Shown: piece by piece, positions 14,327 to 34,856 of the stretch | How positions within the stretch are numbered: the stretch's first letter is position 1 | How the letters are laid out: every line of letters begins with the position of its first letter | NCBI GenBank assembly: GCA_029261815.1 | Contig: JAJDAQ010000054.1 | Coordinates: 155-64,154 of the forward strand | Origin: Deltaproteobacteria bacterium | Lineage (GTDB): Bacteria; Myxococcota_A; UBA9160; UBA6930 | Direction of reading: 5' to 3' | Length of the DNA: 64,000 bases | Notes under the pieces: model-generated | Told to the model about the DNA's origin: nothing | Seen by the model: the letters and a program-made list of their open reading frames with translations, nothing else | Databases searched by the model: none | Made by a program: the position numbers and the translations under genes

Positions 14327-14383
14327 GGGGCCTCCTTGGGAATCGTTTCCTGAAAAGGTTTGAGAACGAACGAGCGGCCTCGC

Positions 14384-16888: not shown

Positions 16889-17044
16889 GGCGCGATTCAA
16901 TCGACTCCGGGTCGATACGAGCCAACCCCCGGCCGAGCGAACGGGAAGTCGTGGCTTCTGTTCGGTTGACGCCCGGTTCGCCTGGGGCATCCATCACGAG
17001 CTAGCATGCGTTTGGCGCTGTCGCCGAAGCCAGGAAAGAAAGAC

Positions 17045-17392
17045 ATGCGACGACCGCAAGGCCAGAATCGCCTCCGACAAGTTCTCTTCATGGGTTTCCA
17101 GATCCTGATCGCGACTGCACTGTCCGCATCTGTGGCGGTCAGTTCCCAAGCACAAGACGAGGAGGCCGAGGAGCCGGTCTTCTTTGAGTGTTCGCTGGAA
17201 ACCGGTGACTGCACGTGCGAGATCAACTCGGTGGTCGGCGTCGGCGGCTGCGCGCAGCTCCAAGGCACGCAGTGCTGGGAGGAGCTGATCATGTGCGACT
17301 TCACGAAGCTCCCGACGACGTGCACGTGCACCCTCAAGGGAGAAGATGGCGAACCCTTCGAGCCGGACATGGAAGATCTAGACGACGAATAG
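17045..17392 (+). CDS. small secreted cysteine-rich acidic protein
   Basis: ORF 17006..17392(+). The signal peptide is FMGFQILIATALSASVAVSSQA. The mature part has 8 Cys and an acidic tail PDMEDLDDE. Start candidates are 17045 and 17090. Confidence 0.5.
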   Translation: MRRPQGQNRLRQVLFMGFQILIATALSASVAVSSQAQDEEAEEPVFFECSLETGDCTCEINSVVGVGGCAQLQGTQCWEELIMCDFTKLPTTCTCTLKGEDGEPFEPDMEDLDDE

Positions 17393-17519
17393 CCGCCCCG
17401 ATCGGCGCATCATGGTGTCGACTTCGAGCGGGTCTTTGACGGCAGCTGAATCGCCCGGACCGAGGGCGGAGTTCGTTCTTGGCGGCTGACAGACTGAGCC
17501 ACCCGCATGTGGGAAAGGC

Positions 17520-19553: not shown

Positions 19554-19628
19554 GGCGTTCTTCCTGCGAGCCATTCTTGATCGGTCCAATGGCCGGGCTT
19601 CAGGATACCCAATCCTTCCCTGGGGGGA

Positions 19629-20324
19629 TCAAGGTTCAGCGCAGAGCGATGCCATCGGGAAGGAGAGTCCGGCGCCCTCGCCGGCGGCCAACGAAGGCCG
19701 GCCGTCGGGTGCGGGGCCGTACAGGAGATCGAAGCCCTCTCCCTCGCCCGGATCGAGGTTCACCTGCACATGGGGCGCCAGCGGCATGGGACGATCGAAG
19801 CGCAGGACGGCCTGCCCCGTTTCGGCGTCGTAGACCACGAGATCGTGCAGGATGGGCTGATCGTCCCAATGCAGCACGAAGCGGCCGTAGCGCCCCGCCG
19901 TGGTCTGGATGACACCGATGGCGCCCCCTTCGCGCGGGCCCGTCAGGCGAATCCCGCCGAGCGCCAGGGATTCGAAAGCGCGTTGGCTCAGCTCACCGTC
20001 CAGGGTCGAAACGAAGCGCCCGGGCGAGCGGATCACGTCTCCGACGTAGAGCGCGAGTTCGTCGTCGACCGCGGCACAGTCCGGTTTCTCGATGCTGCGG
20101 CTCCCGAAGCCCTCCACACCCCGCCCACTCGTCGTCCAGGCTTGTCCCCAGCGATCTTCGGTTTCATAGGTGACGTAGTCCGCGAAGCCTTCCAGCGCAC
20201 CTTCGCCGACTGCGCCGCCCAACTCCTTCGCGAAGTCGCCAGCTCCGGCGCAACCGAGTGCAGCGACGGCCAGGGCCGACGCCGCCACACGCGCCGCGTT
20301 TCGAAGAACTGCTCGTTGTGTCAT
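19629..20324 (-). CDS. probable lipoprotein, unknown family
   Basis: ORF 19629..20393(-). The start is ATG 20324, after AGGAGGAAGG, and overlaps the upstream stop (ATGA). The signal/lipobox is ALAVAALGC. Confidence 0.65.
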   Translation of the reverse strand: MTQRAVLRNAARVAASALAVAALGCAGAGDFAKELGGAVGEGALEGFADYVTYETEDRWGQAWTTSGRGVEGFGSRSIEKPDCAAVDDELALYVGDVIRSPGRFVSTLDGELSQRAFESLALGGIRLTGPREGGAIGVIQTTAGRYGRFVLHWDDQPILHDLVVYDAETGQAVLRFDRPMPLAPHVQVNLDPGEGEGFDLLYGPAPDGRPSLAAGEGAGLSFPMASLCAEP

Positions 20325-20869
20325 CGACCTTCCTCCTGCGCGTCCGACGGGGCCACGATTTCCACGTGGGTGTCGGCCGCTTTGATGAGCCACTCGCCAT
20401 CGGGCGTCTGGATCGCTTCTCCGGATCCAGCCGCGCTGAGGCGCGTCGCGCCGGCGAGCCGTTCCACCTGGCCTTGCGGCGCCCCGCGGCGCGATGCCAG
20501 CTGGGTATAGTCGGAGCGCCGTCCTGAATTGACCTCGTCGACCAGGGCGCGATCCGTCGGTGCGACTGATCGAGGCGTCACATCGAGATAGCCGTCGGCT
20601 CGCTCGCCCACCGCGCCCGCCTGCTTGGCGCGGGCGAGCCGCTGGGACAGCGTCGCGTCGACGCTGCGGGTCGACAACGCCGCCTCACCGCGTTCCGAAG
20701 CGAGGGTCTTCCCCAGGTCGCCCTCCAGGGTCACGCGCACTTCATGGTGGAGGTCGATCCGAATCTCGATCGGCTCCGTCGCGATCTTCACCGTCGGTCC
20801 CTGACACCCGCTCGATGCCAGGGACACCAGAGAAAGGCTCAGACACACCGATACCAGCGAGGGCTTCAT
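20321..20869 (-). CDS. fused YnbE-like / YdbL-like (DUF1318) lipoprotein
   Basis: ORF 20321..20977(-). The start is ATG 20869, overlapping the upstream stop (ATGA). The lipobox is SLASSGC. The N-part GCQGPTVKIATEPIEIRIDLHHEVRVTLEGDL resembles E. coli YnbE as I recall it (CTPRIEVAAPKEPITINMNVKIEHEI). The C-part AKQAGAVGERADGYL...VNSGRRSDYTQLA...QTPDGEWLIK fits the DUF1318/YdbL pattern. Confidence 0.65.
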   Translation of the reverse strand: MKPSLVSVCLSLSLVSLASSGCQGPTVKIATEPIEIRIDLHHEVRVTLEGDLGKTLASERGEAALSTRSVDATLSQRLARAKQAGAVGERADGYLDVTPRSVAPTDRALVDEVNSGRRSDYTQLASRRGAPQGQVERLAGATRLSAAGSGEAIQTPDGEWLIKAADTHVEIVAPSDAQEEGR

Positions 20870-22656
20870 CCGGAGGCCGCCTCGGCTTCGAGGTCGGCCG
20901 GCACTTCGTCGAAGAAGATCACGCCCGAGTCGTCGTTGCCTGACACCACGGCCGGTGGCTTTCCACGACGAATCCATGTGATGGTGTAGTCATAGTCGTC
21001 GGTGTCCAGAGGAAGCGTGATCTCGATTTCCTTACCGTCGATCTCGTCGTTCGTCCGCAAGGCGACCTCGCGACTCCGGCGTCCGTCGAAGAAGTCGTAC
21101 TCGACGAGGACCGAGACCGCGCGAACGTCCTGCTCCTTGAGTAGCTCCGCATTGCCGACCAGCTCGACGGTGCTTCGTCGGTAGGGTGCAAAGAGATCGA
21201 TCATGTTGGTTTCGGTCGTCGTCCAGTCCGTCTCGAGCAGCCCGCCGCCCTTGAAGCTCCAGCGCGTCCGATAGTCGTACTGGAGCCACGCGTCGCGGTC
21301 GGCGTCGCCGTTCCAGCCGTAGATCATCCGGAAATCACGGCTCTCCTGATTGAAGGTGTTTCGGTCAACGACCACTTCCTCGAGCGTTTGCGCGCCGTTC
21401 TCGTGGCGCTTGCGCATCGTCACCGTCACGCTGTTGATGTACTTGTCAAACTCGGGAAGGATCGCGCCGTCGATCCCCACGTGGACCTCGCGCTGTTGAT
21501 AGGCAGGGCTCCCGATATTGACCGTGCGAAACCGGTTGCCATCCTCGCCATAGCGACGGTAGAGATCCCCGATGTTGGCGACCATTGTGACATAACGATC
21601 AGCGGGCTCCTGGTGGTTCAGGCTCATCGTGGTCGTGCCCGACTTCTTCAGTTCCTTCTTCTCGTAGTGAAAGGAAGCGCCGAGGTACATCGCGGAACCT
21701 CGCGCATCCCCGGTGGCGGCCTGCTTGACGAGCGGGTTGCCACTGGCCGCCATCACGCCCGCGATCATGCCCAGCCCTGCGTCGCTCGGCCCCTGCTTCG
21801 GCTTCGGCGGCGGCACCTTCTTGAACATCAGGTCCAGGATCTTCGTCATCGCCTTGTCGAGCAGCGCCTCGCTGCTGTCGTTGGCGCCACGGGTGACCAA
21901 CTGGATGGCGTTGTTCTTGCGCAGCTCGTCGAGCGTCTTGCTCACGTCCGCGTTGATCATCCCGGACAACGCCGAAACGCCACCACCCATCGTCTCGTGT
22001 TTCTGCACCTCGTCCCAGTTGACGATCAGATCTGCTTGATAGGCGTCCGTCAGGCCTGTGAAGGTCATCTCGAACATGATCGAGACGTCGGGCGTCGTCA
22101 TCTTGAAGCTCTCCAGCAGGAGCTTCGAAGACTGGGGATCGATGTCGAACGAGAACGCGACCTCGTTCCCTTCGAAGACCGGCGCGTTGCCCGTCGCTAG
22201 GACGCGGCGCCCGTCCTCTCCCTCGTCAGCCAGGACCGACGAGACCAGGACATAGCGGCCTTCTGTGAAGATGACAGGGCCCCGCAGGATCGCTTCTTCG
22301 TTCTCTGACGCCTGCTTGATTGCCCGCTGGGCCTTCTTGACGACCTCGGGGGGCGTGTCGTAGGTCGCCATCAGTGTGACGATGCCACCGCCCTCTGCGT
22401 CCGTGATCCCCTTGGTCGAGCCCGCGTCGCTAGGCGCATTCTTGACATAGCGGAGAAAGGAGAAGACCGGCTCGCCATTCTCGTCCTGAGCCAGCCGGGC
22501 GCTCTGCGGAATGTAGTACCAGGCATTGGGATCCGAGGCCGATGGGAACACCCAGAGATTCTCGACGTACGCACCACCTTCGAGACTGACCTGCTGCGCT
22601 TGCAAAGGAGCCGCGACCAGCAGCATGGCGACGAGCAACCAGGGGATTCTCTGCAT
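20866..22656 (-). CDS. secreted protein, YYxP-module paralog A (unrecognised family)
   Basis: ORF 20866..22656(-). The signal peptide is MQRIPWLLVAMLLVAAPLQA. N-module: WVFPSASDPNAWYYIPQ, FSFLRYV, GGGIV, GPVIFTEGRY, ATGNAPVFEG. C-module: FRTVNIG..QQREVHVGIDG, YINSVTVTMRKRH, FRMIYGWNGDADRDAWLQYDYRTRWSFKGGG. Ends in an acidic tail. Alignable end to end with paralog B. Confidence 0.85.
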   Translation of the reverse strand: MQRIPWLLVAMLLVAAPLQAQQVSLEGGAYVENLWVFPSASDPNAWYYIPQSARLAQDENGEPVFSFLRYVKNAPSDAGSTKGITDAEGGGIVTLMATYDTPPEVVKKAQRAIKQASENEEAILRGPVIFTEGRYVLVSSVLADEGEDGRRVLATGNAPVFEGNEVAFSFDIDPQSSKLLLESFKMTTPDVSIMFEMTFTGLTDAYQADLIVNWDEVQKHETMGGGVSALSGMINADVSKTLDELRKNNAIQLVTRGANDSSEALLDKAMTKILDLMFKKVPPPKPKQGPSDAGLGMIAGVMAASGNPLVKQAATGDARGSAMYLGASFHYEKKELKKSGTTTMSLNHQEPADRYVTMVANIGDLYRRYGEDGNRFRTVNIGSPAYQQREVHVGIDGAILPEFDKYINSVTVTMRKRHENGAQTLEEVVVDRNTFNQESRDFRMIYGWNGDADRDAWLQYDYRTRWSFKGGGLLETDWTTTETNMIDLFAPYRRSTVELVGNAELLKEQDVRAVSVLVEYDFFDGRRSREVALRTNDEIDGKEIEITLPLDTDDYDYTITWIRRGKPPAVVSGNDDSGVIFFDEVPADLEAEAASG

Positions 22657-24461
22657 CAGTTCTTCCCCAACGTGGCGCCAGCCACTTCTTCGCTCGGGGC
22701 CGGCTCCGGAAGCTCGTCGATGAAGATGATGCCGGTGCTGTCGTCGCCCTCTTCAATGACCTTGCCGCCGCGGGAGACGATCCAGGTGATCTTGTAGTGA
22801 TAGGCGTTGGTGTCGTGTGGCAGGGTCAGCTCGAGGGTCTGGTCCTCGATCGGTCGGTCGGCTCGGATTCGTAGCTTGTCGGTCTTTCTGCCCTCGAAGA
22901 ATGGATAGTCGACCTCGACCAGGACGGCGCGAACGCCCTGCTCTACCAAGGCTTCGTGATCGCCGTAGACCTTGACCACCTTTCGATGATATGGCGCATA
23001 CAGATCGATCATGTTCGCTTCGGCGAGCGTCCAGCCGGTTTCGTACTTGCCGCCTCCCTTGAAACTCCAACGCGTCCGGAAGTCGTACTGGAGCCAGGCA
23101 TCGCGGTCGTCGTCGCCCGACCAGCCGTAGATCATGCGGAAGTCGTTGCCCGCCGATTCCTTGAAGGTCTGGTGGTCAACGACCACTTCGCGGACCGTGA
23201 CGTTGCCATCCTGGTGCTGTTTACGGAGCACCGTCGTCACACTGTTGATGTAGGCCTCGAACTCCGGAAGGATCGCGCCGTCGATCCCGACGTGAATCTC
23301 ACGCTGCTTGAAGGCGTCGTCCGCGAGGTTGACGGTCTTGAAGATGTTCGGATCGTCCCCGTATTCCTCCCAGAGATTCCCGACGTTGAACCCGATCGTC
23401 GAAACGCGCGTTACCGAAGACATATGGTTCATGCTGAGCACCGTCTCGCCGCTGGAACGCGTCTCCTTCATCTTGTATCCGGCGCTCACACCCATTCCGG
23501 TGATCGGTTTGCGACCGTAGGCGTCGGTCTTCTTGTCTTTGCCGAAGTTCTGGATGGCGCCGAAGGCGCTGTTGTCACTCTCGTCGCTGCTCTGGTCGAT
23601 CGGGATCGGTTCGAACATCAGCTCGAGGAGCTGGTTGTGGACCTTGTCCAGCAACGCCTCCATGTTGTCGTTCGCACCGCGCGTCTTGAGCTCGACCGAC
23701 TTGTTCTGCATGAGCTCGTCGAACATCATGCCCATATCGCCGCTGAGGCCCGCGTAATAGACGTTGACCTCGGCCTTGACGCCCATCCGCTTGCTCTTGT
23801 GCACGTCGTCCCAGCGAATGATCAGGTCCGCCTCGAACGCATCGGTGACGCCTTCCACGGTCATCTCGAAGATGAGCGAGATATCGGGCGTCGCCATCTT
23901 CAGGCTCTCCATCAGGAGCGTGGCGCGGTCGGGTGGAAGGTCGAATGACAGCGCGATCTGGCTGCCCTCGAGCACGGGCGCGTTGCCGGTCGCAAGGAGA
24001 TGCCCCTCTTCCTCCCCCGTCTCGGTATTCACGATCGACGAGATCAATGCGTAGCGGCCCTCCTTGAAGATCACGGGGCCCATGAGCTTCAGGTCCTCGT
24101 TCTCCGGATCGAGCCTTCGGACAGCCCGCTCGGCCCGCTTTCGCACCTCCTCGGGTACCCCGTACGTGACCAGGAAGTGGAGGATCCCGCCACCTTCCGC
24201 TTCGGTGATGCCCTGACTCGTCGCGCCTTCGCTTGGCTTGTTGATCACATAACGAAGGAACGAGAACTGGGGATCCCCGTTGTCGTCCGGCACGATCCAG
24301 GAGTCGTTCGGAAGGTAGTAGTAGTGGTTCGGATTGGCGGCGGCCGGAAAGACCCAAAGGCCTTCGATCCGAGCTCCCCGGTCGAGCATGATCTGCTGTG
24401 CAGACAACCCGGCCGGGGCGAACACCCATAGGAACAGGGTCGCGAGAATCGTGAAACGCAT
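22656..24461 (-). CDS. secreted protein, YYxP-module paralog B
   Basis: ORF 22656..24497(-). The start is ATG 24461 (MRFTILATLFLWVFAPAGLSA signal peptide). Shares the motifs of A: WVFPAAANPNHYYYLPN, FSFLRYV, GGGILHFLV, GPVIFKEGRY, ATGNAPVLEG, FKTVNL..KQREIHVGIDG, FRMIYGWSGDDDRDAWLQYDFRTRWSFKGGG. Confidence 0.85.
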   Translation of the reverse strand: MRFTILATLFLWVFAPAGLSAQQIMLDRGARIEGLWVFPAAANPNHYYYLPNDSWIVPDDNGDPQFSFLRYVINKPSEGATSQGITEAEGGGILHFLVTYGVPEEVRKRAERAVRRLDPENEDLKLMGPVIFKEGRYALISSIVNTETGEEEGHLLATGNAPVLEGSQIALSFDLPPDRATLLMESLKMATPDISLIFEMTVEGVTDAFEADLIIRWDDVHKSKRMGVKAEVNVYYAGLSGDMGMMFDELMQNKSVELKTRGANDNMEALLDKVHNQLLELMFEPIPIDQSSDESDNSAFGAIQNFGKDKKTDAYGRKPITGMGVSAGYKMKETRSSGETVLSMNHMSSVTRVSTIGFNVGNLWEEYGDDPNIFKTVNLADDAFKQREIHVGIDGAILPEFEAYINSVTTVLRKQHQDGNVTVREVVVDHQTFKESAGNDFRMIYGWSGDDDRDAWLQYDFRTRWSFKGGGKYETGWTLAEANMIDLYAPYHRKVVKVYGDHEALVEQGVRAVLVEVDYPFFEGRKTDKLRIRADRPIEDQTLELTLPHDTNAYHYKITWIVSRGGKVIEEGDDSTGIIFIDELPEPAPSEEVAGATLGKN

Positions 24462-24512
24462 GAATCTGTCACCACCACGGTGTCCCTGCGGCTGCACAGG
24501 AGCACCGGAACA

Positions 24513-26765
24513 TCAGTCCGCCGTAGCGAAGAGCTCCTTGAACTTGTCGAGCACCTTTTCTGCGCCGATCTTGCCCAGCTTGCGAGCCGCTGCCTTCGCC
24601 TGCTCGCGCGGATCACCGGCCACCAGGATATCCTCGGGGAGCGCCGCGTAGACGTAGCGATCGCCAACCCGCGTGGTCCAATCAGTGACCATCCGCCCCT
24701 CGGTCTTGTGGTGGGCGATGAGCCGATACGCGAAGCCTCGGGTTCCGCGATCGACGTAGATCTTCTGACCGACCAGGTCCTCACCTGCCCGCGGCGACAA
24801 GGGGATTACGGTGAATTCTTCCTGTCCGAATAGCGGGTAGTGGAGTTCGACCGTGATCCGGGCGATGTCGCTGTCCGTCATCTGGGCGAGGTCGCCTTCC
24901 ACCTCGACGTACCACTCCTCGATCGGCGGTGAGAGGGTCACCCCCTCGTAAGTGCCTTTGATCCAGCGGGGCCGAGCTGGGAAGAGGTTCCCACCGCGAA
25001 TGCTCCACTGGGTCTGGTACTGGTACATCTCCGGGTTCCGGTCGTCGCCTTGCGCATAGGTCAGCGACGCCATGATCCCGCGGTTGGCCAGGTGATCCGC
25101 ATCGATCGTGACCGCGTCGGTGAAGTCATTGCCCTTGTTGCGTCGCTTCTTCACCTGGACGGTCACGTAGTTGACCATCTCGTCGAACATGTCCTTCGCA
25201 TCGAGGTCCAGGATGAAGCGAAGCTCCCGTTGTTTGAAGAACGGATCGCTCAGGTTCACCGACTGGATACAGCAGGCTTTCCCGCGCACGCTGTTGTACC
25301 AGCTGGCCATGTTGCCCACGACCTGGAAGCGACGCTTGACGGCGAGGCCGGCATCGAGTCGGATCACCTGCTTCTTGGTCGCGTACTTCTCCGACCAGGC
25401 GCTGCGATCGATCGTGTAGTTGACGGTGCCACGTCGACCGAGTTGCTCGGGACGGTTGTCCTCGCCCCCCTCATCTTCGTCGTCACCCCCCATCAGCATC
25501 GAGACGTCTTCGGCCGGCTTCATCATGGAGTTCAGGAAGTACTCCATCATGGCGTCCATGATCTTGGCCGTGTACTCCGAATCCGGGTTGTATCCCTCGA
25601 AGACGAACTCGACCACGCTGTTCTCGACCATGTAGTCGAAGAACGCCTGCGTCTCTTCCTCGCTGACAACGAGTTCGTTGTCGTCGGCGTCCCACTTGCC
25701 GTGCTCGTCGTTCGTGCTCTCGAAGTTGGCCGAGTACTCCTCGGCCGTGATCTGCAGACGGTCCCAGTTGAAGATGATCTCGCCCTTGGCTGCGGGCAGT
25801 TGCACGTTGTATTTGAAGTCGAGCTCCACCGAGAGGTCGGCGATGGACGCGCCCTGCTCCAGGGACGCCAGGAACAGGGCGGCGCCCTTCGCGGTCATGT
25901 TGGCCGCGGCTGCGACCTTTCCGCCGGGCATCGTTGGCGCGTGCCCAGACTGAACCATCGAACGGGTAAAGCCTTCATCGGACAGCGTGGCCGAGATGAT
26001 CCGGAACGAACCCTCATCCTCATCGGCCTCCGAGAGTTCAGCGGCACCAACGAGCACGCCATCGAACGTGCCTTCGGAGTTCGTGACCTTGCAGCTCTTC
26101 TTCACCTGGCGCCGCAGGTCGCGCTCCTGCGCCTGGGTGAGGCGCCACTCCATCAAGAAGTGGAGCAAACCGCCCTGCACACCGCCCTCTTCCTCGCTCT
26201 CGTCCGAGGTGTACTTCACGAACAGGAATTCGGGGTTCCCGTCCTTGCGCTTGGAGAGGCGAAGGCTGTTTCCGGGCGGCAGGTAATAGAAGCACGGTGT
26301 CTTCTTGTGCTCGCGGAAGTCCTTGGCGCCCTGGCTCGTGTACTGCTGGCGAGCTGAAGCTGCCGAATCGCGAAGGGAGCTGCCCATCGCCGCCGACTTC
26401 GTCTCGCCGCTCTCTGTGCCGCCGCTCCGCGTCGCGACCCCACCCTCGAGCGCATCGAGGAACCCCTTCTGGCGATAACCCGAGAGCGCCGACAGCCGAG
26501 GCGTCTCGTCGTCTTCCACGCCTCGTTGCGAGACACAGCTGGTGGTTCCACCGCCAAGCTTGCTCTTGAACTCGCCGTACAGCACGACGTCGGTTCCATC
26601 TCGCAGCTTGACCGTGCACTGATTCGCACCGTCCAGGATCACTGCCGCGGCCGGTGCGGCCGGCAGTGCCAGCAGCAGCCCAAGCACACAGAGAAGCGCT
26701 CGTCGCGCCGAGCTTCGGGAGTCACGGGTCATCGTTCTGCCTTTCATGTCGTCGGTCGTATTCAC
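24513..26765 (-). CDS. secreted protein, YYxP-module paralog C (divergent, longer)
   Basis: ORF 24513..26765(-). The signal peptide is ALLCVLGLLLALPAAPAAA. Motifs: CFYYLPPGNSLRL, EFLFVKY, GGLLHFLM, SGHAPTMPGG, SVNLSDPFFKQRELRFILD, VNYVTVQVKKRR, QYQTQWSIRGG. The start is GTG 26765 (GTGA overlap with the D stop) or ATG 26747/26732. Confidence 0.8.
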   Translation of the reverse strand: MNTTDDMKGRTMTRDSRSSARRALLCVLGLLLALPAAPAAAVILDGANQCTVKLRDGTDVVLYGEFKSKLGGGTTSCVSQRGVEDDETPRLSALSGYRQKGFLDALEGGVATRSGGTESGETKSAAMGSSLRDSAASARQQYTSQGAKDFREHKKTPCFYYLPPGNSLRLSKRKDGNPEFLFVKYTSDESEEEGGVQGGLLHFLMEWRLTQAQERDLRRQVKKSCKVTNSEGTFDGVLVGAAELSEADEDEGSFRIISATLSDEGFTRSMVQSGHAPTMPGGKVAAAANMTAKGAALFLASLEQGASIADLSVELDFKYNVQLPAAKGEIIFNWDRLQITAEEYSANFESTNDEHGKWDADDNELVVSEEETQAFFDYMVENSVVEFVFEGYNPDSEYTAKIMDAMMEYFLNSMMKPAEDVSMLMGGDDEDEGGEDNRPEQLGRRGTVNYTIDRSAWSEKYATKKQVIRLDAGLAVKRRFQVVGNMASWYNSVRGKACCIQSVNLSDPFFKQRELRFILDLDAKDMFDEMVNYVTVQVKKRRNKGNDFTDAVTIDADHLANRGIMASLTYAQGDDRNPEMYQYQTQWSIRGGNLFPARPRWIKGTYEGVTLSPPIEEWYVEVEGDLAQMTDSDIARITVELHYPLFGQEEFTVIPLSPRAGEDLVGQKIYVDRGTRGFAYRLIAHHKTEGRMVTDWTTRVGDRYVYAALPEDILVAGDPREQAKAAARKLGKIGAEKVLDKFKELFATAD

Positions 26766-28615
26766 GAATCGTCCCCATCTGTCGGCGCAGGCTCCGGTAT
26801 TGGCTCCGGTGCGAGTTCTTCGGGTGGGACGAGGTACAAGTAGGTCGAGTCGAGGCCGGCCGTCTCGGCGTGCTCAGCACCCTTTTTCGAGTGCCATGTG
26901 ACACGCCAACCGACGTCCGTGCCGCGGTCATGATATACCGAGACGGTGGTCGTAGGTTCAGCATCTGCGACTCGGAGCGTCGCTTTCCGCTGGAGCTTGG
27001 GCTTTCCCCCGATCGGAACCGCAAAGTCCACGACTGCAGTGCGAATCCCATACTCGGCGAACTGATCGCGATCGGCGTCGATTTCGATGACTTCTTTCTG
27101 GAACGGCGGTGTCAGCGAAATCACCGGGTCTTCGCTCGGGATCCACTTTTCCTCGTCGCGGGGAATGTTCATGGTGGGGCGATCGCGAACGCTCCAGCGC
27201 ACCTGGTACTCGTAGCCGAGCCAGCTGGCATCGTCTTCGCCCAACCGGGGATAGGTGATCGCCTGCATGATCCCACCGTTCTTCACCTCTTCGTGTGTGA
27301 AGACCAGCGATTCGGTCTTGGTCGCTTGCGACCTGTCGGCGTAGACCTTTCGGAAATTCACCGAGACGAAGTTGACGGTGTCCTGGAAGGCGTCGATGTA
27401 GTCGCCATCGACCTGGAAGTGCACATCGCGCTTCTGGAAGGTGGTGTCGTCGAGGTTCACGACGCGGAAGTAACGCTCATCCTCGCCGTACTCCGAGTAG
27501 ATCCCGCCGAGGTTGCCCGACGTATCGAAGGGCACGCGGATGGTTGTTGAACGCGAAAGGTTGAGCGTGAACTCGTTGCGCGAAATGTCCTTGCGGTTCT
27601 TCAGGACGTACTGATTGTCGGAGATGTACTCCTGGTTCCCGGTCCCTGCGAAGAACTTCGCGAAGCCACCGCGTGACTGACGCCCCGCGAGCTGACCGCC
27701 CTCGACCGCCTGTTCCTTCGGCGGTGCCTTCGACCAGCCCATCTCGCTGTCGAACATCAGCGTGGTCAACTTCGTCGTGACGAGGTCCACGATGCCCTGC
27801 ATGTCACCCGAGTCGATCCCGAGGCCCTGGCTTCGGTCCATCACCTCGATGGTGATGTCTCCAGTCTTGACGAGTTCGTCGGTGATGTCGCGGAGCTGGC
27901 GCTTCTTGAAGCCCTTCTGATACGAGAACACGCGGCTGAAGTGCTCGTAGACGACGTCCATCTTCGCATGGATGCGTGCGTTGTAGGCCTTCACCTTGGC
28001 TTCGTAGTAGGCGGTGATCGAAACCGAGACGTCGGACGTGGGCGCATGGAAGGTGTCGAACAAGAGCGTCGCCCCCTCCTGGGAGAGCCTCGCAGCGACG
28101 ACGGCCTTCGAACCCGGCGTCAGCGGCGCGCGCCCCGACGTGATCAGGTTGCGCGTGAAACCACCCTCTTCCGTGTCGGTCAGGGTCGCAGAGACCACAC
28201 GGAAACCACCAAGCCCCTTCTCACCGTCCTCGACCGACTCCATCAGGGGAACCGGGCCGGCGATCCGGGCGCCGCCAATCTCCTTCTGCAACGCCTTCTC
28301 GAGGGACGCCTCCTCTTCGGGGAGGAGGCTGAGCGTCACCAGCGCATGGAAGATTCCACCGCTTTCCGCGTTGCCCGCCCCCACGAACTTGACGCACAGG
28401 AACTCGAGCGTCTCGCCGCCGTCCTTCGTCGCCAGACGTGGGTAGGTCGGCAGGTACCAGTAGAGGTACTCGTCGTCCGCGTCCTGCAGGAGTTGGATGC
28501 CGTTGACGATCATCCGCCCCTCGTCGTACTTCACCAATGCTTCCGTACTGGTTGCACCGCCGGACACCCAGCAGATGGCCAATGCCGTCGCGATCCAGAA
28601 CCTCGAGGGGCTCAT
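26762..28615 (-). CDS. secreted protein, YYxP-module paralog D
   Basis: ORF 26762..28615(-). The ATG follows GAGGAGGAAGG and overlaps the E stop (ATGA). The signal peptide is FWIATALAICWVSGGA. Motifs: EYLYWYLPTYPRL, LEFLCVKF, GGIFHALV, SGRAPLTPGS, FRVVNLDDTTFQKRDVHFQVDG, VNFVSVNFRK, YEYQVRWSVR. Ends in an acidic/Pro tail. Confidence 0.85.
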   Translation of the reverse strand: MSPSRFWIATALAICWVSGGATSTEALVKYDEGRMIVNGIQLLQDADDEYLYWYLPTYPRLATKDGGETLEFLCVKFVGAGNAESGGIFHALVTLSLLPEEEASLEKALQKEIGGARIAGPVPLMESVEDGEKGLGGFRVVSATLTDTEEGGFTRNLITSGRAPLTPGSKAVVAARLSQEGATLLFDTFHAPTSDVSVSITAYYEAKVKAYNARIHAKMDVVYEHFSRVFSYQKGFKKRQLRDITDELVKTGDITIEVMDRSQGLGIDSGDMQGIVDLVTTKLTTLMFDSEMGWSKAPPKEQAVEGGQLAGRQSRGGFAKFFAGTGNQEYISDNQYVLKNRKDISRNEFTLNLSRSTTIRVPFDTSGNLGGIYSEYGEDERYFRVVNLDDTTFQKRDVHFQVDGDYIDAFQDTVNFVSVNFRKVYADRSQATKTESLVFTHEEVKNGGIMQAITYPRLGEDDASWLGYEYQVRWSVRDRPTMNIPRDEEKWIPSEDPVISLTPPFQKEVIEIDADRDQFAEYGIRTAVVDFAVPIGGKPKLQRKATLRVADAEPTTTVSVYHDRGTDVGWRVTWHSKKGAEHAETAGLDSTYLYLVPPEELAPEPIPEPAPTDGDDS

Positions 28616-29898
28616 CCTTCCTCCTCTTCGTCGTCCACTCGTTCGAGCGGTGCCGACGTGATGTCCAGAATCGGAGCCCAGCTACCACGCTCGGTCCAGG
28701 CTCCAGTCGTGGTGACGCCGTCGCGCGCCGCGGTCGTGACCCGGTACCGGTACGGCTTGTCCATTCGGATGGCGACCGGGAAACGGAGCGTTCGGGCATA
28801 AAGGTCCGGTTGGCTGAACAGGAACTTGGCGTCGATCGGAACGCGGCGTCCGCCGACGGCCTCCGCCTCCAACTCGATCTTCGTGTAGAACAGATCCGGG
28901 CGTTGGCGATTGGCGAAGTCGTAGCAATAGACCTTGACCGCCGCGTAGCCGGGCGGCGCCTTCTCGTTGAAGTCGACACGTTCAACGAGTTCCGGCCAAC
29001 GTGCGACATCGATCGAGATCCCGGTCGCCCCCGCACGCACCATCTGGGATTCGACGGGCGCCTCGAAGGTCGCCTCGTCGAGCGAGAGATCGCCGGGCCG
29101 ATCCTTGCCGCGCGCCTTGCGGTCGAGCTTGCGAAGTAGCTTGGCGGCGACGCCGGTGGGTCGATCGTCGGCGATCGGAACGCCCTGGGCCCGTAGGTTC
29201 TCGATCAGGTCTTCTTCGATCTCGGACTCCGTAGACATCGCCGAGACCTGGGCGTGCTCCGCGCTGTGGACACCCTTGCTGAAGAACGCGTACGAGACAC
29301 TCAGCGCCACCTTCCCGCGGTTCATCATCTCGAGCAGGAGCGTAGCCGTGTGCGGGTCCATCGGAACCGTAAACACGCGCTCGCGCCAATAGGCATCTCG
29401 GCTCGTGCGGCCACCCTTCGAGCCGTCAGCTTCGAAATAGCCTTCCTCGACGACCTGGGGTTCGACGCCGCTCTCGCCGATGGGTGCGTAGGCCAGCAAC
29501 GCCTCGAAGCGGCTGATCGGCAACGGGCGAAGCTCGGCGCGCCCGAGGTTCTCGTAGGCGAGCAGTGCGCGGCGGAGGAAGCGAAGCTCGGCCGGTCCCG
29601 GTGCATCCATCCGCATGTGGAAGGTCAGCGTGTTGAGCGCACCGAACTCTCCCTGGTTTCCATAGGCGGCCGTGCCCGTGTAACGCATCTGCAGGAACCG
29701 GACATCGGGGCGCCCCGTCAGGTCGCGCACGATCTCGAGCCCGCCGGGAGCGAAATAGAACAGACGGCTGTCGTCGAAGTCCGGATAGGTGACGAACTTC
29801 CCAATTTGGCGCGGTGCGCTCAGATCCGGCGCGGCCTCGAGCGCCAGTGGCGCCAGAAACAACGGGAGGAGCAAGAGCATCAGGACTGACCGCGGCAT
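28612..29898 (-). CDS. secreted protein, YYxP-module paralog E (short; different C-terminal module)
   Basis: ORF 28612..29976(-). The start is ATG 29898, overlapping the F stop by 1 nt (TGATG). The signal peptide is MPRSVLMLLLLPLFLAPLALEA. The N-module aligns with A-D: TYPDFDDSRLFYFAPGG, VRFLQMRY, ELRPLP, RERVFTVPMDPHTATLLLEMM..VALSVSYAFF. The tail is DDEEEEG. Confidence 0.8.
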   Translation of the reverse strand: MPRSVLMLLLLPLFLAPLALEAAPDLSAPRQIGKFVTYPDFDDSRLFYFAPGGLEIVRDLTGRPDVRFLQMRYTGTAAYGNQGEFGALNTLTFHMRMDAPGPAELRFLRRALLAYENLGRAELRPLPISRFEALLAYAPIGESGVEPQVVEEGYFEADGSKGGRTSRDAYWRERVFTVPMDPHTATLLLEMMNRGKVALSVSYAFFSKGVHSAEHAQVSAMSTESEIEEDLIENLRAQGVPIADDRPTGVAAKLLRKLDRKARGKDRPGDLSLDEATFEAPVESQMVRAGATGISIDVARWPELVERVDFNEKAPPGYAAVKVYCYDFANRQRPDLFYTKIELEAEAVGGRRVPIDAKFLFSQPDLYARTLRFPVAIRMDKPYRYRVTTAARDGVTTTGAWTERGSWAPILDITSAPLERVDDEEEEG

Positions 29899-32009
29899 CA
29901 GGGTTCCGGCTCTCCCAGCGCGGATCTCAGGGAGGCGGAACCGAGCAGGTAGTCGAGCCTTCGTGACTCGAGCCACATCGACTCCCGGATACTCCCGTCA
30001 CGCATCACGATGTCGAGCTTGTACTCGTAGAACGGCTCCTTGGCGTCTCCTCGGTTCATCTCGGCATCGGTCAGGAACAGACGCGCGATCGGAACCTCCT
30101 CGCCATCCTCCTCCAATACGACCGCGGGTCGGGTCAGCACACGCGTGCGCTGTGGGTCGAGGAACTGGGAGCGCACGTGGACCAGGATCTGATGGGCCCC
30201 CGTCGACTCGAAGACGTCGCCCGTGGTGAACACGAGCTGCCGCGTGGAAGGCGGCGGCGGAATGAACTTCTCGGTGAAGACGAGATCGTCGCAGGGCTCG
30301 CAGTCGCCTTCGACCGAATACCGCACCCAGAGCAGCTTGGCCGTTCTGTCGACCCAGCCCGGAACCTGCTCGGCTTGCCAGATCACTTTGTCGCCCGGTG
30401 CGGCGACGGGGTCGCCGAGATCCCATGTCAGGATGACGGGTTGATCCTTGCGCAGCCCGTTGCCATCACTCGGCGAAAGCAGCAGGGCATGCAGGCTGTG
30501 CAGCCGGATCGGATAACGCGAGCCGTTGGTCCAGCCTCCGCGACGATCGAACGGAATGCGACCGAAGGTCTCGGGTTCGGCGACCGCGATCTGCAACGGG
30601 ATGGACCGCGAGAAGCGCGACTCCCCAGCCGCGTGCAACACGACGCTGCCATGGATTCCGGCGTCGGTGCGCAGGAGGCTCTCGACGTTGAGCAGGCGCT
30701 GGATGTCGGTGGCCCAGGAGACATCCATCGAACCGAGCAACCCGGAGATTCCCTGGACGCTGATCTTGTCGGGCGGAATCGTGAACTGGTTCTCGGCACC
30801 CCCAAAGAGTTCGACGTTCGAGCTCGAATCGAGCGGCAGCGGCCGCAGCTCGCGGAAGCGCATGCTGCCGTCGGGGTGGTTGCGACGCAGATACGCGCGC
30901 AAGAGATCCTCGGCGATCCGCAGTTCGGCGAGATTGACCCCGGCGCGCAGACGCGCCGCCATGAAGACTTCGCCGTCCGAGGATTGCTGTCCCGCCATCC
31001 CGTAGATGACCGTCATCGCGTACTGCTGCAGCGGATCCCACTGCAGGTCGTAGCGCTTGGGCGCGTAATAGAAGAGCCCGGTCTGCGGGTTCTCGTCCTG
31101 ATAGACGTGGTGGTCGATCTGCAGGATCTGTCCCTGGTGCAGCTCGATCTGACGATCGACGCGCAACCCCTCGAACAGGTTGATCGCTTGCAGCTGGCTC
31201 GGCCCGCGGATGTCGCGCATCTCGGCCAGCTTTTCGGCCGTGCGTTGCTGGCGCTCCGCGCGCATCTCGCCGATCTCCTCGACCTTCTCGCGCAGGATGT
31301 CGTACACACGACCCTGTTGCTCGACCTCGAGTTGTCGGCGGCGCTCCATGATCTGCATGCGTTCCATGCTCTCGAGGTAGGTCGCAAGCGGATCCGCTGC
31401 AGGCTCGGCGGCCGGAGTGGGCGCCTGCGTCGGATTGGGCGGTACTGGATTGAGGGTCGGCCGGCCGGTGTTAGGCCGGGTGTTGACGTTGTACGCGCCC
31501 ACGGCGGGTGCTGGTTTGTTGTACGTGGTGGTCGTCGGCGGTGGACTCGCCTGGACGGGCACGGCCACTCGCTGGGGAATGATCACGTTGGTCGTCGTGA
31601 CCGCGGTCGAGGGCTTGGCCGACAGACTCTGCGTGTAGACCGTGGCGCTCGGTCGGTAGACCAGCATCCCGGCCGACTGGGTTCGGGAGAGCGAAGTCGT
31701 CGCTAGGAGCTCGGAAGTCGTCGCCCGGCTTCGCACGTCCGGATTTGGGGCTGCTGGAGCCCCGACGAGCAGCTCTGATGCCGTCGCCGGCAACTGGGCG
31801 CTCGCGTCCACGCTCCGCCCCGAGACCAGCTCCCGGGCCAGCCCCACGGCTTCGGGCACGATCACCACGGTCTCCGCGAGGGCGGCGCCCCCGGTGGTCA
31901 GAACCAGCGCAGTCACAGCCAACCACCAGACGGTTGTCAGACGGGCGTCCGGGCGCGCCGACGGGGCCTCCCCCTGGTGTCCGGCTGCGTGCTCGCCCTG
32001 TCGCTCCAT
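29898..32009 (-). CDS. membrane-anchored protein, YYxP-module paralog F (S/T/P-rich stalk plus coiled coil)
   Basis: ORF 29898..32126(-). The start is ATG 32009 (MERQGEH), 5 nt after GGAGGAGGG. Has a TM/signal anchor TTVWWLAVTALVLTTGGAALA, a long S/T/P-rich segment and a charged heptad-like segment MERRRQLEVEQQ...AEKLAEMRD. The shared module then follows: NPQTGLFYYAPKRYDL, ELRPLPL. Confidence 0.8.
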   Translation of the reverse strand: MERQGEHAAGHQGEAPSARPDARLTTVWWLAVTALVLTTGGAALAETVVIVPEAVGLARELVSGRSVDASAQLPATASELLVGAPAAPNPDVRSRATTSELLATTSLSRTQSAGMLVYRPSATVYTQSLSAKPSTAVTTTNVIIPQRVAVPVQASPPPTTTTYNKPAPAVGAYNVNTRPNTGRPTLNPVPPNPTQAPTPAAEPAADPLATYLESMERMQIMERRRQLEVEQQGRVYDILREKVEEIGEMRAERQQRTAEKLAEMRDIRGPSQLQAINLFEGLRVDRQIELHQGQILQIDHHVYQDENPQTGLFYYAPKRYDLQWDPLQQYAMTVIYGMAGQQSSDGEVFMAARLRAGVNLAELRIAEDLLRAYLRRNHPDGSMRFRELRPLPLDSSSNVELFGGAENQFTIPPDKISVQGISGLLGSMDVSWATDIQRLLNVESLLRTDAGIHGSVVLHAAGESRFSRSIPLQIAVAEPETFGRIPFDRRGGWTNGSRYPIRLHSLHALLLSPSDGNGLRKDQPVILTWDLGDPVAAPGDKVIWQAEQVPGWVDRTAKLLWVRYSVEGDCEPCDDLVFTEKFIPPPPSTRQLVFTTGDVFESTGAHQILVHVRSQFLDPQRTRVLTRPAVVLEEDGEEVPIARLFLTDAEMNRGDAKEPFYEYKLDIVMRDGSIRESMWLESRRLDYLLGSASLRSALGEPEP

Positions 32010-32165
32010 CGAGGCCCTCCTCCTGCTCAGCTCGGCCGTGGTGCCAAGAGTGTCCAGATGTTGAAGCCCCGCTTCGATGGCAGCTTGCCGGACCCGAGGC
32101 GAAACCGAACGACGTCCAGGCTGCATGAAAGCGTTTTCCGTGCGCGGCCGCGAGCCCGGGCGAGT

Positions 32166-34856
32166 CTAATCGGAGGCATTGTCATCTCTGCGGTCTTCAA
32201 CGTCCTGGCCCGCCCTCGCGGCCAGCCGGTCGAGCAGGTCCGAGAATACCGGCAACTGGCGGACGGCTTCTGCGAAGGCGCTGCTGATGTTCACAGTCAG
32301 GTGGACCGGCCTTCCGTCCTGAAAATTCGGATTGCGGCCCTTCAACAGCACCCTCATCTCGGCGCCCTCGTCGAGTTGTCCGGACGCCTGGACCTCGAGT
32401 GACTCGTAGTGGAAGTCCCTCAGTGCCTCCATCAGGATTTCGCCCTGCGACCCGGTGCCCGCAATGGCAGCCGCGGACCCGGTGGGCGCATAGCGCAGCC
32501 GTCCGCCTCCGGGTGCCTGGAACCGGGCACCCCGCAGCACCGGCCGGCCCGAGACCAGGGCCAGCTCAAATCTGCCGGTGAGCCAGCCGGAAATGTCGAG
32601 TCCCTCGACGGGGGCAAGCGCGAGAAGCGATGCGATATCGAGATCGTCCGCTTCGAACGTGAGACCCTGGTCTGCTCTTCCGGACAGATCCAGCGTCCCC
32701 TCGATCCGGACCTCCCCGCCGGCCAGACGGAAGCGCCCCTCCCGGATGACGAGATCATCCGGCCCCGCCAGTGCCCACTGCAGCGCGCCCTCCTCGAGCA
32801 CGAGGTCGGGCGCCAACTCCACCCGCGAGAAGACGAGATCCTGATCGGGCGCGGTCTCCAGGGGATCGAAGCCGACCAGCCGTGCCGACGCCTGCAGCCC
32901 CTTCGCTCGGGTCGATCCGACGCCGACCGCGGCACGCCGGACGAATACCTGGATGTCGGGACGGAGCTGTTCGCCCCACTGCAGGGTTCCGGCGCCCTCG
33001 AGTTCGCCCGCCTCCACCTCGAGCACCTCGGCGAGGGCTGGAATCAGCGCTGCGAAGTCGACCCCGGTTTCGCCGAAGCGCACCGGAGCGAGTTCGAATG
33101 ACACACTCCCTTTTCCATCGACGAGCGAGTGGGCCCCGCTCCCCCGAAGCCGAGCACCCTGTGGCGAGCGAGCGTCGAACCCGAAGGTCGCTGAATCTGG
33201 ACCTCCGGAGATCTGCCCCTCCACCGCCAACTCGGCAACCACGGGGTTCTGACGGCCGATCCTCAACCGCGAGACCGAAAAGGGTCCGGAGAACTCGGAA
33301 CCCGACGGCGTCCAACGCGCGGCAACGGGCGCCTCGATGCCGGCCAACGCCACGTCCGCGAAGGGGAGTGCGAACTCGCCTCCGCTCGCCACGACCTGCG
33401 CTCGGATCTCTTCCGCCTCGCGAACGGCCTCGACACGCACGGTAGGCGTCGTCCCGCTCCACCAGGCCTCGCCGCGCAGGGGTCCCACTTCGAGTTCGAA
33501 CGGCTCGATCTCGATCGTCCCGGCGAGGCTTGTGTCCCCGTCCGCATCCGATTCAACCACGAGAGGACCCGCCGCGGGACTCTTCACGCATAACGATGCG
33601 TCTTCCCACAGCCGTGCCGCGCCGGCCAGGTCGCCGGCATCGACTTCGAGGGAGAGGCAGCGCCCCCCCGTATGGACGCCCAACCGCCGCCCGTCCCACT
33701 CGATTTCGAAGTCGCCCGCGATGCGCCCGGACGGGACCGCATCCGGTCGTCCGCTGCCCATGACCGCTCCCTCCAGGTGGACGTCCATTTGCGCAGCATC
33801 GGTGCTGATCGCGCCCTTCCCCTGGATCGCAATCGAACCGGTCCCGTCTGGAAACTCCCACGCATCCGCAAACATGGAAAACGCAGCCTGCGCAGCCGCT
33901 CCCGGCTCTGCGTCCCAGGCCATGTCAAGTCCGGCACGAAACGGAAGCGTGCTCTGGTCGGCACGAACCAGGGCCGCCTGCCCCACATCGACACTCAACG
34001 CACCGTCTCGATAGGTGGCGTCGACGACGGCTCGGGCACGCTCGATCTCGAGGACGGGATCGATTACGGCGACGACGGTTGCGTGGAGCTCCGCGAACGC
34101 GACCGAGTCAACAAGCGGGGTCTGGTTGAAGATCGGACCGCCGAGTTCGGCATGCGCGCGCAGCTCGGCGTCGACCGAGTCCACACCGGCCATCCCGAAC
34201 AGTTCGAGGAGTTCGCGCGGGAACCTGCCGACCAGGTGGGCATCGACGCGGGGCGATGCCAACTCGAGGGAGCCCCGCAGCCCGGGGTCCGAGGAAGCCT
34301 CGGGGGCATCTCGCAACGGACCCACCGGCCCGGCCTGGAACTCGAGATCTCCCTGCCAGTCGTTCGTGAGATCGGCGGCGCCGTGCGCCTCGATCCGCCA
34401 TGGATCCCCTCCCACTGTGGTCACGAAGACCAGGTCCTCCGCATGGATCGCACGCGGCAACCAGGAGTCGCGCAGGGAAAAACCCCTACCGACCTCGTCC
34501 GACTCCTCGCCCATGTCGAGTTCGTTCCCACACACGGACCAGCCCGCGGGAATTCGTTCGACGCGGCATCGAATACCGCGGACCGTTGCGCGGTCCAATC
34601 GGCGCGCCAGCAGGCCGCGGGCGCTCCACTGGAGACTCGCATGCTCGATCTCAAGGTCGCCGATCGAGGTGCGCGCCAGAGCAACGCCACTCCAGCCGAT
34701 CTCTTCGACCTCCACTCGCGTGGGGCCGAAGCCGTTTTGCTCCAACAACCCCGGGCCCCAGCGCTCGAGCGCGACTGCGATCATTCCAGGGAGACCGAGC
34801 ACCAGGAGCATGAGTACCGCGAGCGCAGCCGTGAGTCCTTTCACAGCACGCCACAT
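32166..34856 (-). CDS. ydbH: YdbH-like AsmA-family protein (intermembrane bridge-type)
   Basis: ORF 32166..34856(-), 896 aa. Has an N-terminal anchor LTAALAVLMLLVLGLPGMIAVAL and a long repetitive beta-rich body. The C-terminus GRLRYAP...EALRDFHYESLEVQASGQLDEGAEMRVLLKGRNPNFQDGRPVHLTVNIS fits my recollection of the DctA-YdbH domain. The operon also carries YnbE/YdbL-like sequence. Confidence 0.65.
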   Translation of the reverse strand: MWRAVKGLTAALAVLMLLVLGLPGMIAVALERWGPGLLEQNGFGPTRVEVEEIGWSGVALARTSIGDLEIEHASLQWSARGLLARRLDRATVRGIRCRVERIPAGWSVCGNELDMGEESDEVGRGFSLRDSWLPRAIHAEDLVFVTTVGGDPWRIEAHGAADLTNDWQGDLEFQAGPVGPLRDAPEASSDPGLRGSLELASPRVDAHLVGRFPRELLELFGMAGVDSVDAELRAHAELGGPIFNQTPLVDSVAFAELHATVVAVIDPVLEIERARAVVDATYRDGALSVDVGQAALVRADQSTLPFRAGLDMAWDAEPGAAAQAAFSMFADAWEFPDGTGSIAIQGKGAISTDAAQMDVHLEGAVMGSGRPDAVPSGRIAGDFEIEWDGRRLGVHTGGRCLSLEVDAGDLAGAARLWEDASLCVKSPAAGPLVVESDADGDTSLAGTIEIEPFELEVGPLRGEAWWSGTTPTVRVEAVREAEEIRAQVVASGGEFALPFADVALAGIEAPVAARWTPSGSEFSGPFSVSRLRIGRQNPVVAELAVEGQISGGPDSATFGFDARSPQGARLRGSGAHSLVDGKGSVSFELAPVRFGETGVDFAALIPALAEVLEVEAGELEGAGTLQWGEQLRPDIQVFVRRAAVGVGSTRAKGLQASARLVGFDPLETAPDQDLVFSRVELAPDLVLEEGALQWALAGPDDLVIREGRFRLAGGEVRIEGTLDLSGRADQGLTFEADDLDIASLLALAPVEGLDISGWLTGRFELALVSGRPVLRGARFQAPGGGRLRYAPTGSAAAIAGTGSQGEILMEALRDFHYESLEVQASGQLDEGAEMRVLLKGRNPNFQDGRPVHLTVNISSAFAEAVRQLPVFSDLLDRLAARAGQDVEDRRDDNASD

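Follow-up and report, generated by a model that had tools for sequence, protein, structure and literature searches.

What do six similar-looking genes, standing in tandem on one strand of a bacterial contig, encode: members of a known family, the products of a recent duplication, or something else? The question is raised by the window studied here, that is, the whole 64,000-nt stretch of contig JAJDAQ010000054.1 that was analysed; all coordinates are positions in it, and the paralog genes are labelled A to G. The initial annotation had placed six open reading frames (ORFs), A to F, in this window, had given all of them export signals and a shared N-terminal module (N-module), and had read them as distinct but homologous subunits of an unrecognised protein family. 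The ORFs lie where it put them, on the minus strand (Table 1). We find that they belong, with a seventh gene, G, to a superfamily whose operon recurs in other phyla, and we assign a probability of about one half to the reading that the six products and G are subunits of one putative, obligate hetero-oligomeric, Sec-exported complex in the periplasm or cell envelope.

Homology of the paralogs

The motifs by which the resemblance was noticed (AWYYIPQ, HYYYLPN, CFYYLPP, LYWYLPT, LFYFAPG, LFYYAPK, EFLFVKY, LEFLCVKF, and VRFLQMRY) can all be read in the translations. Those of the C-terminal module (C-module), namely QRE.H, VTV..RK, and GW.GD.DRDAW, are present as well, though the last is strict in A, B, and G only. 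By BLASTP, with a nominal database size of 1e8, A and B share 48% identity over 601 columns, and the other pairs among A, B, C, and D share 22-26% over 514-619 columns at E-values of 1e-21 to 1e-35; within this range, D against A, B, and C gives 1e-30 to 1e-35, and C gives 1e-21 to 1e-31. A hidden Markov model (HMM) of A to D, run against every long ORF of the window, recovered G in two stretches at an E-value of 7.5e-108, with protein E marginal (0.06) and protein F unmatched. By these alignments, with BLASTP E-values running from 1e-21 down to 0, A to D and G are homologous over their full length, and the C-module that had been attributed to all five holds good.

The two remaining proteins were compared through orthologue profiles built from 78 related loci (hhalign). 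Protein E matches A/B, D, and G with a probability of 98% (E-values 7e-15 to 5e-13), and C with 96% (1.6e-9) over the first 72 columns only. Since its residues 35-447 align with residues 7-496 of A/B and so span part of the C-module, E is a shortened member rather than an N-module set on an unrelated half, and the "different C-terminal half" once ascribed to it has to be given up. Protein F is the weakest member. It matches the profile of E only (probability 91%, E-value 1e-6), with residues 55-221 of E lying against residues ~335-489 of F, including LFYYAPK, and its C-terminal part bears a weak likeness to the C-module sandwiches (probability ~52%). Membership of F in the superfamily is probable on these profile matches; the N-module claimed for both proteins is thus clear in E and faint in F. 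One of two outcomes that had been named beforehand as fatal to the idea was motif sharing of no statistical significance; the sharing is significant by BLASTP, HMM, and hhalign.

Judged from their sequences, A and B are a comparatively recent, lineage-specific duplicate pair. Recent tandem duplication applies to this pair alone, and we reject it as the origin of the set.

Conservation of the operon across phyla

Loci were gathered from one genome per GTDB species, and every ORF was assigned to its best-matching window protein, with X standing for an A/B-type gene. The 78 loci, many of which are truncated by contig ends, come from about ten phyla. Carriers include Myxococcota-like metagenome-assembled genomes (MAGs), Acidobacteriota, Eisenbacteria, Gemmatimonadota, and Bacteroidota (among them the cultured Agaribacillus aureus BMA12), and also Gammaproteobacteria (Arenicella, Wenzhouxiangellaceae), Gallionellaceae/Nitrotoga, Desulfobacterota, Sedimentisphaerales (Planctomycetota), and Limnocylindrales.

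The complete order F-E-D-X-C-G, in which a G-type gene directly follows C, is seen in 23 of the 78 loci; its parts D-X-C and E-D-X-C occur in 46 and 39, respectively, and a variant, E-X-D-C, in 13, mostly from Desulfobacterota. The window's own lineage has the order F-E-D-C-B-A with G elsewhere, G being the orthologue of the canonical operon's sixth gene. E orthologues are found in at least 60 loci, and F orthologues stand directly upstream of E in ~50; C and D each form an orthogroup of their own, with D third in the conserved order. Copy number varies at some loci (e.g., D-X-C-C-C-G-G). With one orthologue each across phyla, A/B excepted, the paralogs are old by this comparison.

Reading along the minus strand, one finds stop/start overlaps at six of the eight junctions of the window's operon (Table 1), and the genes are, from these overlaps, translationally coupled. 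Co-occurrence, fixed order, and translational coupling are found here; an obligate hetero-oligomer would show these together with physical association of its subunits. One-to-one orthologues, fixed order, and coupling strongly support the earlier view of distinct homologous subunits over recent duplication, again with the exception of A/B.

Export signals and predicted structure

All seven window proteins have signal-peptide-like N-termini, as do the Agaribacillus orthologues, in agreement with the export signals first reported for six of the seven. These N-termini were judged by eye from the n-region, the hydrophobic core (Kyte-Doolittle maxima 1.6-2.7), and an AxA-like site. No lipobox was read in the signal peptides of the paralogs, and a hydrophobicity scan gave no internal transmembrane helix in any orthogroup. 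Alpha-helical membrane proteins can be rejected because internal hydrophobic helices are lacking.

The AlphaFold2 model of A, made from a 45-sequence alignment (mean predicted local distance difference test [pLDDT] 77.5, predicted template modelling score [pTM] 0.48), begins with a beta-sandwich and two helices at residues ~22-190, where pLDDT is mostly 85-92. Two very long predicted strands of 21-23 residues follow (191-213 and 341-361) around a helical, disordered insert (214-340, pLDDT often <50), and two confident beta-sandwich domains close the chain (365-596). The loop of this hairpin is hypervariable: it measures 125 aa in A and reaches ~600 aa in G, with a coiled coil and Pro/Thr repeats, and no conserved amphipathic hairpin or hydrophobic segment was seen in the insert.

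Foldseek searches of the Protein Data Bank (PDB) with full-length A returned only tandem immunoglobulin (Ig)-like arrays, such as the MG domains of complement C3/C4/C5 and adhesins, at template modelling (TM) scores of ~0.1, with pneumolysin (5cr6) at rank 16 (E-value 5.6e-4, probability 0.23, TM 0.09-0.10). The N-module, modelled separately, had no PDB match at an E-value <1e-3; its best was the Fn3-like domain of GH3 glucosidases (7.6e-3, TM <0.2). Against BFVD, full-length A matched generic Ig-like virion proteins. The pore-forming, lipid-binding, or adhesin fold suggested at the outset found no confirmation in these structure searches.

Search for a known family

No Pfam or NCBIfam match below an E-value of 0.05 was obtained for A to F, no Pfam match for G, no PADLOC match for A to F or G, and no PHROGs match for A, C, D, E, or F. 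When 45 aligned homologues were scanned singly, only sub-threshold noise appeared, such as DUF736 in 13 of the 45 (best E-value 0.0015); ~30 family members and operon neighbours, together with these 45, gave nothing at family threshold. Scans of the window proteins, the 45 homologues, the Agaribacillus orthologues, the signal-less relatives and HExxH protein described below, and nine unusually long members assigned no Pfam, NCBIfam, PADLOC, or PHROGs family, the one exception being a single protein with a TPR insert. Searching the PDB by sequence and by profile gave noise only (e.g., coronavirus nsp8, a designed PPR protein). Among 5.8 billion proteins, A has at least 390 homologues, all unnamed or "hypothetical" and none with a precomputed Pfam domain, and a description of the family was not found in the literature. 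The superfamily is previously unannotated and structurally unmatched in the libraries used, so that the description "unrecognised protein family" stands. The other outcome named beforehand as fatal, placement of the modules in a characterised Pfam family, did not come about either: the searches put no module in a Pfam, NCBIfam, PADLOC, PHROGs, or PDB family.

A signal-less sister system

Searching plasmids with tblastn revealed distant relatives on Paracoccus and Pararhizobium replicons, in tandem arrays of 745-897-aa paralogs that start with MLSL... or MLYLD... and carry no signal peptide. This signal-less system occurs in Actinobacteria and Proteobacteria; Amycolatopsis sp. cg5, Starkeya sp. 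ORNL1, and Pararhizobium share a conserved operon of six genes, c1-c6. Its c1, c2, c3, and c6 products are full-length relatives of A to D (hhalign probability 97-99.9%, 450-530 columns); c4 and c5 are unannotated and unrelated. Profile scores are 365-1208 among the exported groups, 729 between c1 and c2, and 400 between c3 and c6, as against 38-250 across the two systems. These scores, high within and low between systems, show that each system expanded on its own to four full-length paralogs.

In alignments, Met1 of the signal-less forms falls at the mature N-terminus of the exported ones. In 1.84 billion cluster representatives (50% identity), a profile of the N-terminal sandwich found 2,532 sequences at an E-value <=1e-3 and 1,501 at <=1e-10. 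Among the 150 matches listed of the 2,532, the module starts at residue 1 to ~90 in every one (at residue 1 or just behind a leader peptide).

On plasmid pNSM5TCa of Paracoccus sp. SMMA_5_TC (locus L081, positions 1-18705), the array adjoins genes for a trypsin-like peptidase, an EAD1 protein, a STAND-type ATPase, and a PLD-like protein, the last of these genes being embedded in the array itself. From its gene content this neighbourhood looks like a conflict system; PADLOC matched no system in it. The 12 keyword-retrieved passages of the paper that defines EAD1 in conflict systems (PMC7159879) contain no such paralog arrays.

Gene structure and setting of the cluster in the window

The true start of E is likely Met27, and that of B Met13, as judged from the sequence. 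F runs from a signal peptide through ~200 aa of Pro/Thr/Ala-rich low complexity and a coiled coil to a divergent N-module (LFYYAPK) and beta-rich C-terminal domains, and its long N-terminal region probably reflects a mis-called start preceding an ordinary signal peptide (...VWWLAVTALVLTTGGAALA/ETVV). C has an extra segment of ~110 aa behind the first N-terminal strands and a helical tail at the C-terminus. G, found with the HMM of A to D, carries between its N- and C-modules a ~480-aa insert made of a coiled coil, a tandem repeat, and S/T/P/R-rich disorder. The 42-bp unit of the repeat is present in 5.9 copies (95% matches) and encodes TASPTPPTPTPPQR; it accounts for the local AT-skew and GC-skew anomaly at 44001-46000. 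The genes on both sides of G (LNT_N-like and amidase) are envelope-related, and a link to G is not evident. Promoter and terminator scans were uninformative.

Directly upstream of F lies a YdbH-like gene, whose product we take to be a member of the AsmA family acting in intermembrane phospholipid transport. In the gene after A, a lipoprotein signal (...LVSLASSGC, lipobox LASSGC) and then a YnbE-like segment, PTVKIATEPIEIRIDLHHEVRVTL, precede the DUF1318 (YdbL) domain; we therefore read it as a YnbE-YdbL fusion. Its homologue in locus L002 likewise has a faint Lipoprotein_19 match and DUF1318. In Escherichia coli, ynbE and ydbL are two separate genes. With ydbH before F and the fusion gene after A, the six genes stand inside a ydbH ... 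ynbE-ydbL operon. Related MAGs (loci L002/L003, L006, L007, and L056), whose proteins are only 60-73% identical, show this nesting too, and the small lipoprotein gene after ynbE-ydbL is kept in this lineage's related MAGs only. For the majority of the 78 loci, and for every phylum outside this lineage, no YdbH-like gene was detected beside the operon.

Proteases also stand near these genes. In several phyla the gene after G encodes an HExxH protein (phmmer counts 11 such loci, BLAST clustering 18); it is absent from this window. Its product is exported, has ~470 aa and the conserved motif HE..HTQ...W......YG.D..H...E, and yielded no Pfam, PDB, or named relative. In the window, two caspase-like (Peptidase_C14) genes whose products have signal-peptide-like N-termini flank the operon. 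The product of the first has three copies of a ~60-aa helical motif (...WQRF(L/I)D...HW...) behind the protease domain. The second also contains DUF4384, a domain seen again in a further ORF nearby (Table 1). A Casp2-like gene lies upstream of ydbH in L056, and caspase adjacency is confined to the window and L056.

Table 1. Genes, modules, and junctions of the cluster and its surroundings (window positions, except where a related locus is named)
Feature	Position	Strand	Length	Description
Caspase-like gene 1	17520-19589	minus		Peptidase_C14
Small predicted lipoprotein gene	19629-20324	minus		...LAVAALGC; ATGA start overlaps ydbL stop; no Pfam match
YnbE-YdbL fusion lipoprotein gene	20321-20869	minus		after A; Pfam DUF1318 (YdbL), E-value 8e-22
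A	20866-22656	minus	596 aa	full-length paralog
A, C-module	20869-21558	minus		residues 367-596
A, N-module	21559-22593	minus		residues 22-366
B	22656-24497	minus	613 aa	full-length paralog; likely start about 24461
C	24513-26765	minus	750 aa	full-length paralog
D	26762-28615	minus	617 aa	full-length paralog (N-module and C-module)
E	28612-29976	minus	454 aa	shortened member (N-module and part of C-module); likely start 29898, 1-nt overlap with F stop
F	29898-32126	minus	742 aa	first of the six genes
YdbH-like gene	32166-34856	minus		Pfam PF11739, E-value 8.5e-44
Caspase-like gene 2	34916-37144	plus		Peptidase_C14
ORF with DUF4384	37663-38931
LNT_N-like gene	41199-43127	minus		apolipoprotein N-acyltransferase-like
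G	43766-46993	minus		seventh paralog, elsewhere in the window
G, tandem repeat	45341-45586	minus		42-bp unit
Amidase gene	47238-48035	plus		N-acetylmuramoyl-L-alanine amidase
Junction ydbH/F				40-nt gap
Junction F/E				TGATG, 1-nt overlap (with E start at Met27)
Junction E/D				ATGA overlap
Junction D/C				GTGA overlap
Junction C/B				~50-nt gap
Junction B/A				TGATG overlap
Junction A/ynbE-ydbL				ATGA overlap
Junction ynbE-ydbL/small lipoprotein gene				ATGA overlap
HExxH gene, locus L010	15788-17227
HExxH gene, locus L023	15952-17376
HExxH gene, locus L038	16157-17557

What the proteins may be

One-to-one orthology, gene order, stop/start overlaps, and the existence of two independent four-copy systems are together best explained if the proteins are subunits of one complex. 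The sister system, with its own four full-length paralogs, argues that several different copies are needed together. The signal peptides on all members and the lack of internal hydrophobic helices place the putative complex in the periplasm or envelope, and the setting of its genes within the YdbH-YnbE-YdbL operon hints that it works between the two membranes.

How might such a complex be built? The N-module would be a ~195-aa beta-sandwich that starts exactly at the mature N-terminus and continues into the very long beta-hairpin; its invariable position at the very N-terminus suggests that it may serve as the common assembly unit by which different subunits are packed side by side. The hypervariable hairpin loop and the C-terminal Ig-like sandwiches would then set the subunits apart in their roles. 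F, which has a long Pro/Thr-rich linker and a coiled coil, may be a spacer or scaffold, and the G insert and the F linker may act as spacers or subunit-specific arms. A dedicated protease may process the complex: the HExxH protein in most phyla, and here possibly the flanking exported caspase-like peptidases.

Several points weigh against this reading. Proteins that act separately in one pathway could show such gene order and coupling too. Confidence in the AlphaFold2 models is medium (pTM 0.48-0.53), and the hairpin insert is in effect unmodelled (pLDDT <50). The YdbH context is limited to one lineage (the window and the five related loci named above) and is absent in other phyla, and signal-less relatives in monoderm Actinobacteria show that nothing intrinsic to the family makes it an envelope machine. 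Proteolytic processing is guesswork, with the HExxH gene missing from the window and caspase genes adjacent only here and in L056.

The main rival holds that we are looking at a multi-component, protease-activated, membrane-attacking (pore-forming) system, an analogue of the complement membrane attack complex (MAC) or of bicomponent and tripartite toxins, in which the paralogs co-assemble and the helical, disordered insert refolds and enters the membrane after cleavage. We consider it unlikely; neither fold nor sequence comparison lends it support. The long strands around a low-confidence helical insert do recall the refolding regions of beta-pore formers, and some members have Gly/Ala-rich hydrophobic stretches in the insert; yet in G the insert takes ~480 aa of coiled coil and Pro/Thr repeats, and a conserved membrane-entering segment was not recognised in it. 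Proteases are found in three settings (HExxH after G, exported caspase-like here, and trypsin-like, with EAD1, STAND, and PLD-like genes, in Paracoccus), but the adjacency is lineage-specific and could be coincidence. The presence of pneumolysin among the Foldseek matches fits this idea too, although its probability and TM score are low, the N-module had no match below 1e-3, MACPF/CDC, aerolysin, gasdermin, and leukocidin folds are absent from the 50 best matches listed, and Pfam models of pore-former families were unmatched.

Quite unlikely, in our estimate, is that the secreted paralogs each act on their own, for instance as adhesins, binding proteins, or fibre/pilus-type subunits that differ in specificity. 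Their all-beta, multi-sandwich build, the Ig/Fn3-like matches to adhesins and complement MG-domain arrays, the variable inserts and tails, and the variation in copy number would all suit it. One-to-one orthology with a fixed order across phyla, stop/start overlaps throughout the operon, and the independent arrival of the sister system at four different full-length copies speak against it, as do two further points: signal-less versions cannot be surface adhesins, and no usher, sortase, type IX secretion system (T9SS) tail, or other surface-sorting feature was seen.

Distinctly improbable is that, in this lineage, the proteins serve the YdbH-YnbE lipid bridge as accessories, perhaps as a beta-sandwich stack or sheath by which the short YdbH groove is lengthened or propped up where the periplasm is wide. 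In E. coli, an intermembrane phospholipid bridge is formed and regulated by YdbH, YnbE, and YdbL, and YdbH is described as being, on its own, not long enough to cross the envelope (PMC13464000). In the window, ydbH and ynbE-ydbL exactly bracket the six genes on the same strand, A overlaps the fusion gene, and related MAGs keep the arrangement. Against this stand the failure to detect a YdbH-like gene beside the operon in most loci and in all other phyla, the signal-less relatives in monoderms, and the lack of any LptA-, AsmA-, or MCE-like fold or Pfam match.

We also reject a known anti-phage defence system (no PADLOC matches) and an origin in phages or mobile elements (no PHROGs matches, and tblastn against plasmids gave distant chromid-borne relatives only).

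Beyond the hetero-oligomeric, exported complex that we prefer, a wider picture can be offered tentatively and with more doubt than belief. The superfamily may represent an ancient multi-subunit machine of at least four paralogous beta-rich subunits plus accessories, including an HExxH protease of its own. One of its two forms would be Sec-exported and belong to diderms, the other signal-less and belong to Actinobacteria, Proteobacteria, Cyanobacteria, and Chloroflexota. The exported form would be either a new structure that spans the envelope and cooperates with the YdbH-YnbE lipid bridge, or a heteromeric membrane-attack complex triggered by a protease; each of these, if true, would be a class of system with no described bacterial counterpart.

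Comparison with known systems

This six- or seven-gene operon is functional dark matter across about ten phyla, and the kind of system appears new. Some of the carriers, such as Acidobacteriota, Gemmatimonadota, Bacteroidota, Myxococcota, and Desulfobacterota, are abundant in soils and sediments. If its products do form a complex, it would be a new envelope assembly and possibly a new membrane-active or intermembrane machine. Cultured carriers of the exported form (Agaribacillus aureus BMA12) and of the signal-less form (Amycolatopsis sp. cg5, Starkeya sp. ORNL1, and Pararhizobium qamdonense) make it directly testable.

The Mce (MlaD-domain) operons of Actinobacteria, whose six paralogs form a heterohexamer, offer a likeness in tandem paralogs with a conserved N-terminal module and divergent C-terminal parts, in exported or anchored members, in conserved gene order, and in a lipid-transport neighbourhood (here YdbH/YnbE/YdbL). 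Mce proteins act jointly as one envelope hetero-oligomer; the same is proposed here. The resemblance is one of organisation only: there is no MlaD/MCE Pfam or fold match, the signal peptides are cleavable whereas Mce proteins have N-terminal anchors, and no YrbE-like permease or ATPase gene occurs in or beside the operon at the loci examined. We therefore do not place the family among the MCE heterohexamers.

With the complement MAC, the MACPF/CDC proteins, and the leukocidins, the family would share co-assembling paralogs (a proposal here), long beta-strands around a flexible segment, nearby proteases, and the weak match to pneumolysin. The MACPF/CDC fold is a bent four-stranded sheet with two helical clusters that refold into hairpins; here there is only one strand-insert-strand unit, with a hypervariable insert of up to ~600 aa. 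With no MACPF or Thiol_cytolysin Pfam match, and none of these folds among the 50 best N-module matches listed, membership is rejected. Proteins of the aerolysin/ETX-MTX2 type have elongated sheets and an amphipathic, Ser/Thr-rich insertion loop of ~40 aa. They had no Pfam match and were absent from the Foldseek matches listed, and the insert, at 125-600 aa, is not amphipathic. Bacterial gasdermins are cytoplasmic, and an adjacent caspase-like protease removes their C-terminal inhibitory peptide. Despite the flanking caspase-like genes, they too are set aside: Pfam and PADLOC gave no match, none is among the Foldseek matches listed, and our proteins have signal peptides and are 2-3x longer.

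The type V pilus operons of Bacteroidota (FimA-E/Mfa1-5) also encode tandem, paralogous, all-beta, envelope-exported subunits. Their assembly needs a protease and a terminal strand, and here the module begins exactly at the mature N-terminus. They differ in having lipoprotein signals where ours are ordinary; our subunits are much larger and have signal-less, cytoplasmic relatives. Type V pilins are further marked by two beta-sandwich domains of the FimA type and an N-terminal strand that a protease releases. With no FimA/Mfa Pfam match and no lipobox, our proteins are not placed among them.

Bridges of the Lpt/AsmA-like kind are built on an OstA/LptA beta-jellyroll or an AsmA-like beta-taco groove. 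A to F matched neither in Pfam, the fold is absent among the Foldseek matches listed, and only the neighbour upstream of F is YdbH-like, so membership in this group falls as well. The association with the genes of the YdbH-YnbE-YdbL bridge known from E. coli is limited to this lineage. None of the six proteins is a homologue of YdbH, YnbE, or YdbL; their genes are co-oriented with ydbH and the ynbE-ydbL fusion, to which A is translationally coupled. This nesting offers a handle on how short AsmA-like bridges outside E. coli are completed or regulated.

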